A stretch of 64,000 bases of DNA from Myxococcales bacterium (GCA_016794525.1 JAEUJY010000077.1:109091-173090), one strand, 5' to 3'; counted from the first letter of the stretch, positions 36,507 to 42,175 are shown. Numbers and translations are program-made. The notes: a model not told the origin generated them from the sequence alone.

Positions 36507-38360
36507 ATGAGCGTCACCGGCGACCACGGGGCAGATACCCCGAGCCTCGCCTCCGGCGGCGGTCGGGTCGACGACTACTTGCTGTGCATCGACGGCGAGC
36601 GATCGTGGAAGGTGCCGGTGCCGGTCGGGACCGAGCTGACCATCGGGCGCGAGGCGGATGGGGGGCTGCGCCTCACCGACGCGCTGGCGTCGCGTCACCA
36701 CGCGCGCTGCCTCGCGACGCCCGACGGGCTGCGGCTGGTCGATCTGGGCAGCCGTCACGGCACGCTGGTGAACGGCGAGCGTATCGTCGGCAACCGCTTG
36801 TTGCGTTCGGGGGACGTCGTCTCGATCGGGAACGCCACGCTGGTGCTGCACCGGACCCTGCGCCCGGTCACCAGCGCGGTGGTCGAACGCGACGCGCTGG
36901 TGCGGCGGCTCGACGACGAGCTGGCGCGCGCGCGGCACTACGGGCGCGAGGTGACGGTGGTGGTGGCGCGCAGCCAGCCGGCGGCCGACGCTGCGCGCGT
37001 TAGCCTCGCCGTCAGTGGGCTGCTCCCACCCGTCGCCTTCATCGCGCCGCTGGCCGCCCACCACGTCGCCGTGGTCGTGCCGGAGCTCGGTGGCGCCCAG
37101 GCCCCGCGGCTCGCGGCGCGGCTGGCGACGGCGCTGCACGGCGTGCTGGGCCCGGTCACCATCGGGGTCGCGCGCGCGCCGGGGGACGCCGTGGTCGCCG
37201 ACGGGCTCCTCGCGGCCGCGCGCGCCGCCGCCGATGCCGGCGAGCTCGGCGCGGTCACCGACGCGGCGGCGCATGTGCCGACAATCGAGATCGGCGACCT
37301 GCGGATCGTCGTCGCCGAGCCGAGCCTGATCAAGCTGTACGAGCTCGCGGCGCGCCTGGCCCGCTCGCCGTTGCCGATCCTGATCGAAGGGGAGACCGGG
37401 GTCGGCAAGGAGGTCGCGGCCGCCGCGATCCACGGCTACTCGCGGCGGCCGGGGCCGCTGGTCGCCGTCAACTGCGCCGCCGTGCCGGAGGCGCTGGCCG
37501 AGAGCGAGTGGTTCGGACACGCCCGGGGCGCGTTCACCGGCGCCAGCAACGCCAAGGCGGGGTACTTCGAACAGGCGCACGGCGGGAGCCTGTTCCTCGA
37601 CGAGATCGGCGAGCTGCCGCTCGCGCTGCAGGCCAAGCTGCTGCGGGTGCTCGAGGTCGGCGAGATCGTCAGGATCGGCGAGACCGCGACCCGGCGGGTC
37701 GACGTGCGGATCGTCGCCGCGACCAACCGCGACCTGGCCGACGAGGTCCGGGCGGGGCGCTTCCGGCAGGATCTGTACTTCCGCATCGGTGCCGCGCGCC
37801 TGGTGCTGCCACCGCTTCGGGATCGTCCTCGCGATCTCGCGGTGCTGTGCAACCGCATGCTGCGCGACGCCTGCGCCGCGCTGGGGCGCACACCGCTCGC
37901 GCTGTCGGTCGCGGCGACCTGGGCGTTGTTCGGCTACGCGTGGCCCGGCAACGTCCGCGAGCTCAAGAACGTCATCGGCTACCTCGCCGCGGCGGCCGGC
38001 GACGACGACACGCAGCTCGACGTCGAGCACCTCCCGTCGCTGGTGACCACGGCGCCGCGGCCCGCCGCGCCTCTGCCGACCGCTCCCCCGGCGGCGGCTG
38101 CGGTTCCTGCGCCCGCTGCGGCGCCGGCGGTGGTGGCTGCGCCGCTCGCCGCGGCCGCGCCTGGCGCGAGCGCCCCGCTCGGCTCGATCGCCGATGACGT
38201 GCGCGCGCTCGAGCGTGGCCGGATGGTGGCCGCGTTGCGGTCGAGTGGTGGCCAGGTCAACCGCGCGGCGGCCTTGATCGCCATGCCGCTGCGAACCTTC
38301 GCGACCAAGGTCAAGCGCTACCAGATCACCGCGGCGGACTGGCGAGATCCCGAGGCATGA
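36507..38360 (+). CDS. FHA-domain sigma-54-dependent transcriptional activator
   Basis: N-terminal FHA ([23 protein letters not shown]....[17 protein letters not shown]). AAA+ with [23 protein letters not shown]-terminal Fis HTH. The stop overlaps the start of the next gene (ATGA). Confidence 0.85.
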
Positions 38361-41300
38361 GCGAGGACCCGCCGCTCGCCGACCTCGACGAGTTCCGCCT
38401 GCTGCGGGCGCTCGGCCGCGGCGGGATGGGGGCGGTGTACCTGGCGCGCGACACGCTGCTCGATCGCCTGGTCGCGGTGAAGGTGATCGGCGTCGGCGCG
38501 GCGGGCAGCGAAGGTCGCCGCCGGTTCCTCACCGAGGCTCGCGCGATCGCCCGGCTCAACCACCCGAACGTCGTCGGGGTCTACCGCGCGGGTGTCACCG
38601 CCGATGGCCAGCCGTACCTGGCGCAGGAGCTGGTGCGCGGGCAGAGCCTCGACCGGCTCGAGCTCCCGGTGCCGCCGGGGCGCGCGACCGAGATCGCCCT
38701 CGGCGTGGCGCGCGGTCTCGCGGCCGCGCACCGCCGCGGCATCCTGCACCGCGACGTCAAGCTGGCCAACGTCATGCTCGACGAAGCCGGCGTGCCCCGG
38801 CTGCTCGACTTCGGGCTGGCCAAGCTCGGCGCGTATGCCGAGGCGGCCCCCGCCCCGCCGCCGTCGCCGCTGCCGCCGCCGGAGAGCGTCGCGACGCTCG
38901 AACCGGTCCCGTCGCCGGCCGCGACGCTCGACCCGATCCCGTCACCCGCAGGGGTCGCGATGGACGAGACCCCGCCGCGGGGCGACGCGCCGCCCACTGT
39001 CGACGCTGACCGTGTGGATGCGGCGGCCACCGCCGACGGTGCGCTCCTGGGCACGCCGCGCTACCTCGCCCCCGAGCTGTGGCGCGGGCACCCGGCGTCG
39101 ATCGCGTCGGACCTGTACGCCTTCGGCGTCCTGCTGTTCGAGCTGCTGGCCGGGCACCCGCCGTTCGGCCAGCGGACCCTGGCCGACCTGCGGAGCGCCG
39201 TCCTCGTCGCCGATCCGGCGCCGCTCGCCGTCGACGGCCTCGCGCCCGAGCTCGCGGCGCTGGTGGCCGATTGCATGCAGCGCGAGGCCGCGGCGCGCCC
39301 GGCCTCGGCCGATCAGGTCGTGCATCGGATCGAGCGACTGCTCGCCGGCGCGCCGGCGCTGGCGGCGGTCGAGCCGTATCCCGGGCTGGAGCCGTTCGAC
39401 GACGCCCGCCGGGCGGACTTCTTCGGGCGCGGCGCCGAGATCGCCGCGATGGTCGATCGCCTGCGCGGCGAGTCGTTGCTGGCCATCACCGGCGACTCGG
39501 GCACCGGCAAGTCGTCGCTCGCCCGCGCCGGCGTGTTGCCGGCGGTGGTCCGCGGGGCGCTGGGCGACGGTCGGCGCTGGGAGGTCCGCGCCGTGCGGCT
39601 GGCACGCGCGCCGGCGGCGGCGCTGACCTCGGCGTGTGGTCTCGCGCCGGGCCTGATCGACGATCCGTCGCCGACCGCGATCGCGGCGGGGCTGGCCGAC
39701 CGCGGCGACCGCGGGCTGCTGGTGTTCGTCGATCAACTCGAGGAGCTGATCACCGAGGCGTCGGCGGAGGAACAGGGGGCCGCGCTCCGGCTGCTGGCGG
39801 CCCTCGCCGGGGACGTCCCCGGCGTGAAGGTCGTGGCGACGTTGCGGGGTGACTTCTTCACGCGGCTGGCGAGCACCGCCGCCTTCGGCCCGCTGCTCGT
39901 CCGCGGTCTGGCCGTGCTGGGGCCGCTCGCCGCCGACGGCGTCCGCGAAGCCGCGGTCGGCCCGGCGCGGGCTCGCGGGGTGCGGTTCGAGAGCGAGACC
40001 ACGGTGGCCGCGCTGGTCGAGGCCGCGCGCACCGCGCCGGGGGCGTTGCCGCTGGTGCAGTTTGCGCTCGCCGAGCTCTGGTCGCGGCGCGACCAGGCGC
40101 GCGGGTTGATCCCGACGGCGACGCTCGACGAGCTGGGGGGCGTGGCCGGCGCGCTGGCGCGTCACGGCGACCGTGTGCTCGCGGCGCTCGGCCCCACCAC
40201 GCGCCCGGCCGCGCGGCGGATCGCGCTGGCGCTGGTGACGCGCGCGGGCACCCGCGCCACCCGGACCCGCGACGAGCTGGCCGGCGACGATCCCGACGCC
40301 GGCGCCGCGCTGGAGGCGCTGGTCGCCGGTCGCCTGGTCGTCGGCAGCGACGGCGGTGGCCCGGCCCCGGTGTACCAGCTCGCCCACGACGCGCTCATCG
40401 CCGCGTGGTCGACGCTGCGCGGCTGGCTCGACGACGCCGCCGGGCAGCGCGGCCGCCGCGCGCGGTTGGCGGCTGCCGCCGACGAGTGGCATCGCCTCGG
40501 TCGGCGCCCGCAGCACCTGTGGAGCGCGGCGCAGCTGGCCGACGCCGCCGGTCTCGACGAGCTGAGCGATCGCGATCGGCAGTTCGTGACGGCGAGTCGC
40601 CGCGCGAACGTGCGGCGGCGCGCGGCGCTGGTGGCGGCGATCGCCGCGCTGCCGCTGATCGCGGGCGGCACCTGGTCATGGATCCGGCGCGGCGACGCGC
40701 GCGATCGTGCGGCGCGGGTGGCGCTGCGGGCGGCCCAGGCCGACGCCCACGAGCGGGACGCGCGTGAGGCCGCGGCCCAGGCCGCAGCTGGGCGCGCCGC
40801 GCTGGCGACCTGGTTCGCGGCGGGGACGCCGGCCGCGGCCGAGGAGCGATGGCGCAACACCCAGGCCGACGCCGCGCGGGCGCGGCGCGCGTTCACGGCG
40901 GCGGCCAACGAGCTCGAGGCCGCGCTGATCGTCGCCGGCGAGAGCGAGCCGCTGCGGCGCCGGCTGGCGACGCTGCTGGTCGAGCACGCGGCGCTGCTCG
41001 AGGCCGAGTTCGACGCCGTCGGCGCCGACGCGCTGATCGCGCGCGCGGCGCTCTACGACCGCGCGCAAGGCGACCGGTGGCACGCGCCGTCGCGGGTGAC
41101 CGTCACGGCGCGAGGCGCGACCTCGATCTCCGCGGCCCGCTACGTCGACCAGGGCGGCCGGCTAGTGCTGGACGCGCCGGTGGCGAGCGTCGCGGGTGCG
41201 CGCGCGACGCTGACGCTCGCGCCTGGATCGTATCGACTCGCGCTGGCGACCGCCGACGGGGTGGTGGTGATGATGCCGGTCGCGGTGGCGCGCGGTGAGG

Positions 41301-42175
41301 CGTCGACCGTGGCGCTGGCGCTGCCCCGTGCGGCCGAGCTGCCCGCCGGCTTCGTCTACGTGCCGCCGGGGCACTTCCTCGCCGGGAGCCGCGACCCTGA
41401 CTCGTTCCGCACCATGCTGCTCGAGGCTGCGCCGCAGCATCGGCGCCGCACCGCCGGGTTCCTGATCGCCCGCGACGAGACGACGTACGGCGACTGGATC
41501 GAGTTCTTGCGCGCGCTCCCGCCCGCCGAGCGCGAGCGCCGCCGGCCGCGCACGCTGAGCGACGCGGCGCGAAGCCTCCGCCTCGAGGGTGCCGGTCCGT
41601 TCACGCTGCGCTTCCAGCCCGTCGACGCGCCGATGATCGCGGCGGAGGGCGCGCCGCTGTGGTTCGCCACCCGGCCGGCGCGCCAGGCCGTCGCGTGGGA
41701 GCGGGCGCCGGTCGGAGGGATCGACTTCGACGACGCGCTGGCGTACGCGGCCTGGCTCCGCGACTCCGGCCGCGTGCCGCGGGCGCGGCTGTGTGAGGAG
41801 TACGAGTGGGAGCGTGCCGCGCGCGGCGCCGATGGGCGGCGGTTTCCCCACGGCGATCGGATGTCACCCGACGACGCCAACGTCGACGTCACGTACGACC
41901 GCCAACCCGATCGGTTTGGCCCCGACGAAGTCGGCGCGCATCCGAACTCCGAGAGCCCGTTCGGGGTCCGCGATCTCGCAGGCAACGTCAAGGAGTGGAC
42001 CGTGGCCAGCGACGGTGGCCCACGGCTGCGCGGCGGTGACTACTACCACAGCACCGACGCCGCCTTGGCGATGAACCGCGATCCGGCGGAGCCGACGATG
42101 CGCTTGCCATGGATCGGCGTCCGGATCTGCGCGGATCCGCAACCCGGCCTGGAGCCCACCACGCTGGAACCTTGA
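38357..42175 (+). CDS. Multidomain Ser/Thr protein kinase: Hanks kinase + STAND-type P-loop NTPase + TM + FGE-sulfatase (SUMF1-like) domain
   Basis: Kinase motifs [35 protein letters not shown]. Walker [12 protein letters not shown] with a long helical STAND-like region. C-terminal FGE-sulfatase signature [13 protein letters not shown]...[12 protein letters not shown]...[21 protein letters not shown]. Confidence 0.85.

Follow-up and report, generated by a model that had tools for sequence, protein, structure and literature searches.

A receptor-type Ser/Thr kinase gene coupled to an FHA-domain sigma-54 activator gene and followed by an ADYC lipoprotein gene: a candidate signaling cassette of Myxococcota

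Which serine/threonine kinase signals to which FHA-domain activator in myxobacteria, and with what output, is to our knowledge largely open. These bacteria have hundreds of Ser/Thr kinases and dozens of sigma-54 activators, and in many of the activators an FHA domain replaces the receiver. FHA domains bind phospho-threonine (pThr), and bacterial enhancer-binding proteins (EBPs) are obligatory activators at sigma-54 promoters. The question is posed in compact form by a locus within a 64,000-nt stretch of Myxococcales bacterium DNA (GCA_016794525.1, JAEUJY010000077.1:109091-173090; hereafter the window, ~73% G+C), where the gene of an FHA-domain EBP overlaps that of a large kinase with STAND NTPase and formylglycine-generating enzyme (FGE)-like domains, and a gene for an ADYC-domain lipoprotein follows. 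A preliminary description of the sequence had proposed a dedicated partnership of EBP and kinase. Our analysis suggests that the three genes probably form a dedicated signaling cassette, in which the receptor kinase would act through the FHA-EBP on a sigma-54 promoter of the ADYC gene.

Gene order, activator and distribution of the cassette

The coordinates and domain content originally given for the EBP and the kinase were borne out by a Pfam scan (Table 1). The two genes form one operon. All three bases of the EBP stop codon TGA are shared with the start of the kinase gene, whose ATG lies at 38357, giving the 4-nt ATGA overlap already noted in the preliminary description. At least 8 of 14 orthologous EBP-kinase pairs have this overlap or its GTGA form, and the genes of most other pairs are less than about 10 nt apart. 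With this recurrent overlap the pair has the adjacency that marks a cognate kinase and FHA regulator of the PknH-EmbR type. The cassette consists of three genes, the FHA-EBP, the membrane receptor kinase and the ADYC lipoprotein with its own predicted sigma-54 promoter, and is conserved and common in Myxococcota; the same order is found in locus L001 (homologue 53% identical) and in Sorangium cellulosum (L002). Scans of 35900-54000 with Rfam and of 35900-44000 for sigma-70 promoters and terminators returned no match, and PADLOC and NCBIfam gave generic kinase and EBP matches for the cassette proteins and none for the ADYC protein.

Judged by its sequence, the first gene product is an NtrC-class sigma-54 activator, with an AAA+ module containing GAFTGA (341-346), Walker A GETGVGKE (295-302) and Walker B LFLDEIGE (362-369; DEIGE 365-369), and a C-terminal helix-turn-helix (HTH) domain that scores 23.2 bits against a curated cut-off of 22. 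Its FHA domain is predicted to be a canonical pThr-binding domain, as the residues of the pThr pocket are all present: GR at 47-48, SRHH at 62-65 (S62/H65) and NG at 89-90 (N89). No Pfam family matches the region that separates FHA from AAA+, but a profile built from 12 orthologues matches diguanylate cyclases in the PDB (E 8e-10). This degenerate GGDEF domain, from which the GGDEF motif is absent, is common to the orthologues in L001, L002, L005, L018, L091, L104, L110, L126, L141, L150 and L157. An RxxD motif resembling the I-site is kept in most orthologues, a possible cyclic di-GMP input, and is lost from the window copy.

About 100 family loci were collected from genomes and metagenomes and scored by tblastn. 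A genome scan with the full-length alignment gave about 12 useful loci, being swamped by generic kinases through the pattern around the DFG region; the metagenome scan was run without the kinase domain. An ADYC gene lies 3′ of the kinase in 44 of the 51 loci with enough downstream DNA. Upstream, the picture is more varied: an FHA-EBP is found directly ahead on the same strand in 13/56 loci, a divergent Sigma70_r4 protein resembling extracytoplasmic function (ECF) sigma factors in 7/56 (by Pfam), and the remaining 34 loci have no recurrent upstream partner. Pfam assignments of 57 neighboring open reading frames (ORFs) at EBP-less loci were heterogeneous and revealed no third common partner. The conserved core is the kinase with the ADYC lipoprotein; the upstream position is taken by alternative partners, the FHA-EBP being one of several. 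In a neighbor-joining tree of the region from STAND to the C-terminus, ECF-linked kinases are monophyletic and EBP-linked kinases fall into three clades; because partner type tracks the kinase tree, the choice of partner is inherited with the kinase. The ECF-linked kinases, a sister clade within this receptor family in which the Sigma70_r4 gene is transcribed divergently, are those of L004, L008, L109, L113, L119, L129, L133 and L152. This conserved core, the alternative partners and the degenerate GGDEF domain of the EBP are features that go beyond the preliminary description.

The kinase is 100% identical to protein P0001 of a Myxococcales bacterium metagenome-assembled genome. The best 120 database matches are 40-62% identical to it, come mostly from Myxococcota and all carry the same three Pfam domains, under names that include 'bifunctional serine/threonine-protein kinase/formylglycine-generating enzyme family protein' and 'nSTAND1 domain-containing NTPase'. 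The tripartite design had been called unusual; that judgment does not hold, because the Myxococcota family is large and the architecture was catalogued in 2021 (PMC8195603).

Candidate promoters, palindromes and further targets

Two genes had been put forward as sigma-54 targets, at 42242..43672 and 35994..36437. The first is the ADYC gene, and between the kinase stop and its ATG lies TGGCGCACCAATTGCA, one mismatch from TGGCAC-N5-TTGCW. In all loci, sites were accepted with at most 2 mismatches and intact GG and GC; an ad hoc sigma-54 weight matrix was far too permissive, and mismatch counting was used in its stead. On this basis, the kinase-to-ADYC spacer holds a coding-strand site in 10/12 EBP-linked loci compared with 5/23 EBP-less loci (Fisher p 9e-4), and the match in L110 is perfect. 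A background of 0.10 sites per kb per strand leads to an expectation of 0.45 in the EBP-linked spacers. Over all spacers the sites are strongly strand-biased (17 plus, 0 minus; p 1.5e-5). These statistics make the ADYC gene the best-supported target of the EBP, in keeping with the first proposal. The second, an SRPBCC gene, was rejected as a target: no sigma-54-like site precedes it, and it is not kept beside the cassette elsewhere.

A different arrangement is seen in L001. There the kinase-to-ADYC spacer is only 18 nt long and lacks a site, and a sigma-54-like site lies 33 nt 5′ of the EBP start; because the site precedes the EBP, the whole L001 operon may be sigma-54 autoregulated. This locus bears on a plainer explanation of the gene order, in which the EBP drives the genes for the kinase and the ADYC protein, takes its own signal from a different kinase or from a small ligand of its GGDEF-like domain, and the cassette kinase acts on other substrates. 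Apparent autoregulation in L001 would fit such an arrangement, as would the degenerate FHA domain of some EBP orthologues, the I-site-like motif kept in most of them, and the lack of a linked EBP at most family kinases. On the other side, the start/stop overlap is conserved, the type of regulator co-varies with kinase clade, and the window EBP keeps every pThr residue of its FHA domain and has lost RxxD. We therefore consider it unlikely that adjacency is all that joins the two genes, and prefer the coupled kinase-EBP pair.

The spacing between site and start codon is a feature in its own right. Exactly 13 nt separate each of three window sites from an ATG: that of the ADYC gene, that of a giant RHS-repeat protein gene on the minus strand, and that of a gene encoding an eCIS-core protein. 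Over all loci, 20 of 187 sites show a sigma-54-like 16-mer followed by 12-14 nt and an ATG, a spacing from which sigma-54 transcripts with almost no leader are to be expected in these Myxococcota. In the ADYC copy, AAGGAG is placed between the -12 element and the ATG. Examples are 42213-42244, 52603-52632 (minus strand) and 52931-52962 in the window, 2019-2048 in L001, and sites at 9690 in L005, 5379 in L104 and 7894 in L126. Minus-strand sites at 5938 in L002 and 4031 in L005 point from the EBP gene toward a divergent upstream gene, and these divergent genes are possible extra members of the regulon.

A palindrome with the core GCCGAWTCGGC may mark the enhancer. The core occurs 10 times in 1.66 Mb (fetched loci plus window), and 5 of the 10 copies map 5′ of a sigma-54 site in the spacer between kinase and ADYC genes, in L018, L091, L110 and L141. 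An extended 19-bp form, GCRYGCCGAWTCGGCRYGC, allowing up to 3 mismatches, was found in 1.6 Mb of loci at EBP-linked cassettes only (three copies in L001, one each in L018 and L110). Perfect palindromes are present in L001 at 93 nt 5′ of the sigma-54 site that precedes the operon and, at a distance of about 60 nt, near a second such site. The window has 4 copies against 0.03 expected, three in tandem behind the ADYC gene and one between the divergent RHS and eCIS-core sites. Candidate targets of the EBP's HTH domain are GCATGCCGATTCGGCATGC, the array at 43691-43735 and the site at 52841-52859. The array may bind the EBP or may serve as a 3′ hairpin/terminator: the genes on either side converge on it, and its RNA forms a strong hairpin (-54.6 kcal/mol, z -2.9), which makes a role as terminator or as REP-like (repetitive extragenic palindromic) element possible. 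A search 5′ of the window ADYC promoter itself turned up weak inverted repeats only, within coding sequence.

The shared promoter geometry and the palindrome copy make the RHS toxin and eCIS-core genes candidate regulon members, and these genes, ~9-10 kb downstream, may be induced by the EBP. The RHS protein apparently starts at ATG 52605-52603, which opens the signal peptide MRSLAIVALILTITAPAPAAAQ, rather than at the ATG 52696 chosen by the ORF finder. The window also encodes a second, unrelated sigma-54 activator at 10968-12437 (plus strand), and an intergenic divergent pair of sigma-54-like sites lies near 13.7 kb (13632-13647, minus; 13687-13702, plus). Upstream of the cassette, on the minus strand, are the SRPBCC/polyketide-cyclase-like gene (35994-36437), a LysR regulator (33546-34500), a tryptophan 2,3-dioxygenase (30863-31978) and an FAD/old-yellow-enzyme fusion (28558-30846), none of which is kept beside the cassette in other loci.

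Table 1. Positions of cassette features and candidate regulatory elements in the window
Feature	Position	Strand	Evidence
Sigma-54 enhancer-binding protein (EBP), 617 aa	36507..38360	+	ATG 36507, TGA 38358-38360; Pfam
FHA domain, residues 45-108	36639..36830	+	Pfam E 7e-13
Degenerate GGDEF (diguanylate-cyclase-like) domain	36879..37271	+	Orthologue profile against PDB
Sigma-54-interaction AAA+ module and lid	37308..38057	+	Pfam Sigma54_activat E 1e-62 (residues 268-431), AAA_lid_14
Fis-type HTH_8 DNA-binding domain, residues 566-605	38202..38321	+	Pfam E 6e-5
ATGA start/stop overlap, EBP/kinase	38357..38360	+	Read in sequence; recurs in orthologue pairs
Receptor Ser/Thr kinase, 1,272 aa	38357..42175	+	ATG 38357; Pfam, homologue alignment
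Hanks-type kinase domain	38396..39346	+	Pfam Pkinase E 2e-39; alignment
nSTAND1 NTPase, residues 340-718	39374..40510	+	Pfam PF20703 E 1e-87; invariant columns
Single predicted transmembrane helix, residues 758-776	40628..40684	+	Hydropathy scan; AlphaFold2
Predicted extracytoplasmic helical bundle, then beta-sandwich (PEGA/CarboxypepD_reg-like)	40685..41320	+	AlphaFold2; PEGA Pfam matches in some homologues
FGE-fold (C-type-lectin-like) ectodomain, predicted non-catalytic	41348..42136	+	Pfam FGE-sulfatase, AlphaFold2, Foldseek
Sigma-54 -24/-12 promoter-like element TGGCGCACCAATTGCA	42213..42228	+	13 nt before ADYC ATG
ADYC-domain lipoprotein, 476 aa	42242..43672	+	Pfam PF20032 E 7.5e-30; lipobox ...LAAGC
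Three tandem palindromes GCRYGCCGAWTCGGCRYGC	43691..43735	.	Just 3′ of ADYC stop
Giant RHS-repeat/FG-GAP/SpvB protein, ~2,890 aa from ATG 52605-52603	43928-52605	-	Pfam
Sigma-54-like site TGGCGCGGGTCGTGCT	52617..52632	-	13 nt before ATG 52605-52603 of RHS/SpvB/FG-GAP giant protein
Fourth palindrome copy	52841..52859	.	Between two divergent sigma-54-like promoters
Sigma-54-like site CGGCACGGGCGCTGCT	52931..52946	+	13 nt before ATG 52960 of eCIS_core + PG_binding protein
eCIS_core (DUF4157-type) + PG_binding_1 protein	52960-54831	+	Pfam; directly behind sigma-54-like site

The receptor kinase, its lipoprotein partner and a proposed signaling route

In an alignment of the window protein with 35 homologues, the catalytic residues of the kinase domain are invariant (K42, E60, HRD 131-133, N138, DFG 151-153, APE 238-240). 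The nSTAND1 match spans 378 of 379 model positions, and its Walker A motif (GDSGTGKSS, 379-387) and the Walker B residues D459 and E462-463 (within VDQLEE, 458-463) are likewise invariant across the alignment, so both modules are predicted to be active. Within the activation segment of the kinase lies a poorly conserved Pro/Thr-rich insert of 75 residues (38825-39049; mean pairwise identity 0.23), in which A-T-L-(E/D)-P motifs recur. This insert is a possible location of phospho-threonines read by the FHA domain.

Beyond the STAND module, residues 758-776 form the most hydrophobic window of the protein and have an equivalent in 33 of 36 homologues, in agreement with the transmembrane (TM) segment originally placed ahead of the FGE-like domain. 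An AlphaFold2 (AF2) model of residues 761-1272, computed from the homologue alignment, has a mean predicted local distance difference test score (pLDDT) of 94 and a predicted template-modeling score (pTM) of 0.90; a long helix runs from the TM segment into a helical bundle, which is followed by a beta-sandwich and a globular domain. The latter corresponds to the Pfam FGE-sulfatase match at residues 998-1231 (E 3e-26), and Foldseek matched it to FGE, its inactive paralogue pFGE, PvdO, ToxD, CalU17, EgtB, PorK and variable proteins of diversity-generating retroelements (DGRs), with E ~1e-12 against FGE structures. The SUMF1-like domain of the preliminary description is therefore upheld as a fold, which the model and Foldseek place beyond the point at which that claim would have fallen, and not as an enzyme. 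True FGEs carry the motif GGS[YF]xCHxSYC with a pair of copper-binding catalytic cysteines; in the window protein the Cys-containing motif is replaced at residue 1225, and the family consensus is RGGSWYxGxxSA, without Cys. Because the catalytic pair is absent, a binding function is the best reading of this domain. Its conservation equals that of the kinase (mean pairwise identity 0.52), and it is therefore no hypervariable antigen receptor.

The ADYC protein starts at ATG 42242, preceded by AAGGAG, and its N-terminus MRIPPRVLLLMAPAALTSLAAGC is a lipoprotein signal; a lipobox or signal peptide is present in nearly all orthologues. Eight cysteines are invariant across 32 orthologues, and the ADYC motif itself is divergent in the window protein (SSDVC). 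Most orthologues have N-terminal pentapeptide-like repeats, and the family profile matches pentapeptide-repeat structures (E 6e-10). The family comprises 1,242 clusters at E ≤1e-3; a word-indexed homologue search with ADYC, as single sequence or profile, returned 2 proteins. Divergence is fast: ADYC proteins from loci whose kinases share ~50% are only 26-30% identical to that of the window, and mean column identity is 20%. The protein is predicted to be disulfide-rich and to share the outer compartment with the kinase ectodomain. A literature search found no paper that mentions the ADYC domain.

The tight co-occurrence of the FGE-like domain with a protein of 8 invariant cysteines could also point to an enzymatic domain in place of a ligand sensor, with a periplasmic substrate, for instance the ADYC protein, undergoing oxidative modification; the fold family does include the enzymes FGE, EgtB, OvsA and CalU17. 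The copper-binding Cys pair is nevertheless missing from the window protein and the family consensus, a search for a CxPxR-type FGE target motif in ADYC found none, and the closest relatives by sequence, ToxD, PvdO and pFGE, are non-catalytic or accessory proteins. An enzymatic role is in our view very improbable.

From these features we infer how the receptor sits in the membrane, that its ectodomain senses a ligand and its STAND module activates the kinase, and that the FHA domain docks on pThr and the EBP becomes active. In the proposed route, the kinase and nSTAND1 modules would be cytoplasmic, with the helical bundle, beta-sandwich and FGE-fold domain outside the membrane. The FGE-like ectodomain would bind a ligand, perhaps with the ADYC lipoprotein as a partner, upon which the STAND module would oligomerize in a nucleotide-dependent manner and the clustered kinase domains would autophosphorylate on threonine. 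The FHA domain of the co-translated EBP would then dock on phospho-threonine, with the EBP possibly phosphorylated as well, and the AAA+ ring of the EBP would assemble and open the sigma-54 promoter at 42213. Induction of the ADYC lipoprotein would serve as feedback or output, and the RHS toxin and eCIS-core/PG-binding genes might be induced too.

Several observations weigh against a dedicated cassette operating in this way. The phospho-signaling from kinase to FHA domain is predicted, in organisms with hundreds of possible kinases; FHA pThr-binding residues are degraded in the EBP orthologues of L018, L110, L150 and L091; and the TM topology is a prediction from hydropathy. At the promoter, the 13-nt spacing means that transcription is expected to start only after the Shine-Dalgarno sequence AAGGAG, five EBP-less loci still have sigma-54-like sites, and 3/4 of the family has no linked EBP. 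There is no palindrome within 150 nt 5′ of the window ADYC promoter, the nearest array being 1.5 kb downstream and also a terminator-like hairpin, and the second EBP in the window is a caveat on the assignment of further targets. Finally, the AF2 model of the ADYC protein, built from a 3-sequence alignment, has a pLDDT of 29 and offers no usable clue to fold or function.

A more specific version of the route would make the protein a pattern-recognition receptor kinase, in which an extracytoplasmic lectin-fold sensor, an NLR-like STAND switch and a kinase signal to the FHA-EBP. A foreign molecule from prey, competitor or cell wall would induce the RHS/Tc-like toxin and the eCIS-core/peptidoglycan-binding protein as secreted weapons, and ADYC as co-receptor, via near-leaderless sigma-54 transcripts, with GCRYGCCGAWTCGGCRYGC as the enhancer. 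We offer it tentatively, as a rather unlikely elaboration of the three-gene cassette. The cassette itself is a directly testable pairing, with a coupled kinase and FHA-EBP, a sigma-54 target predicted next to them and a sequence that may be the enhancer, and the ECF-linked sister clades with the same receptor are natural controls.

Comparison with known systems

The nSTAND1 family was defined by Kaur, Iyer, Burroughs and Aravind in 2021, who list S/T/Y kinases among the N-terminal modules of STAND-FGS proteins (PMC8195603). Those proteins are enriched in multicellular bacteria and are described as conflict (immunity or programmed-death) systems with intracellular sensors (PMC8195603). The window protein has the same order of kinase, nSTAND1 and C-terminal FGS lectin-fold domain, and differs in the TM helix, helical bundle and beta-sandwich that lie between STAND and FGS and lead us to predict an extracytoplasmic sensor. 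Its cassette also differs, with a linked FHA sigma-54 activator and ADYC lipoprotein and without effector-associated domains (EADs) or a DGR; no EAD, caspase, TIR or reverse-transcriptase gene was found in the neighborhoods examined. A text search of PMC8195603 for sigma-54, enhancer, NtrC and periplasm gave no match.

It follows from this likeness that the locus might itself be a STAND-FGS conflict system, in which the FGS domain senses an invader, STAND is the switch, the kinase is an effector that shuts the cell down, and transcription is secondary. The same domain string is listed among such systems (PMC8195603), the cassette adjoins RHS and eCIS-type toxin genes, and its ADYC partner evolves fast, at the mean column identity given above. 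The sensors of those systems, however, are described as intracellular, whereas the conserved TM helix predicts an FGS domain beyond the cytoplasm; neither EAD, caspase or TIR components nor a DGR were seen beside the cassette, and PADLOC gave no system-specific match. The FGE-like domain is conserved rather than hypervariable, and dedicated transcription factors co-evolve with the kinase. We judge a conflict role distinctly improbable and keep to a receptor that signals through the EBP.

On the transcriptional side, FHA-domain EBPs of Myxococcus xanthus are reportedly the subject of a 2005 paper in PNAS by Jelsbak, Givskov and Kaiser, known to us from reference lists. The window EBP resembles them in having an N-terminal FHA domain in place of the receiver on a sigma-54 AAA+ activator, with control by Ser/Thr kinases presumed; its subfamily differs in the extra degenerate GGDEF domain, the coupled candidate cognate kinase and the predicted adjacent target promoter. 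In the PknH-EmbR system of Mycobacterium tuberculosis, a receptor kinase with an extracellular sensor phosphorylates a neighboring FHA regulator via its FHA domain. Here too a receptor Ser/Thr kinase gene adjoins an FHA-regulator gene, but EmbR is a SARP-type sigma-70 activator, and PknH has neither a STAND nor an FGE-like domain. PknT-EcfP of Vibrio, a kinase-controlled ECF sigma factor, resembles the ECF-linked paralogous cassettes and not the window pair. Kinase- or regulator-STAND fusions of the PknK/AfsR type share the combination of a Ser/Thr kinase signaling module with a STAND/AAA_16 switch that controls transcription, but are soluble, with TPR sensors and sigma-70 regulators. The closest catalogued architecture is the STAND-FGS class, and the closest functional precedents are the M. 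xanthus FHA-EBPs and PknH-EmbR; a domain layout that the catalogue lists for intracellular immunity sensors also exists as a predicted transmembrane receptor with transcriptional output.

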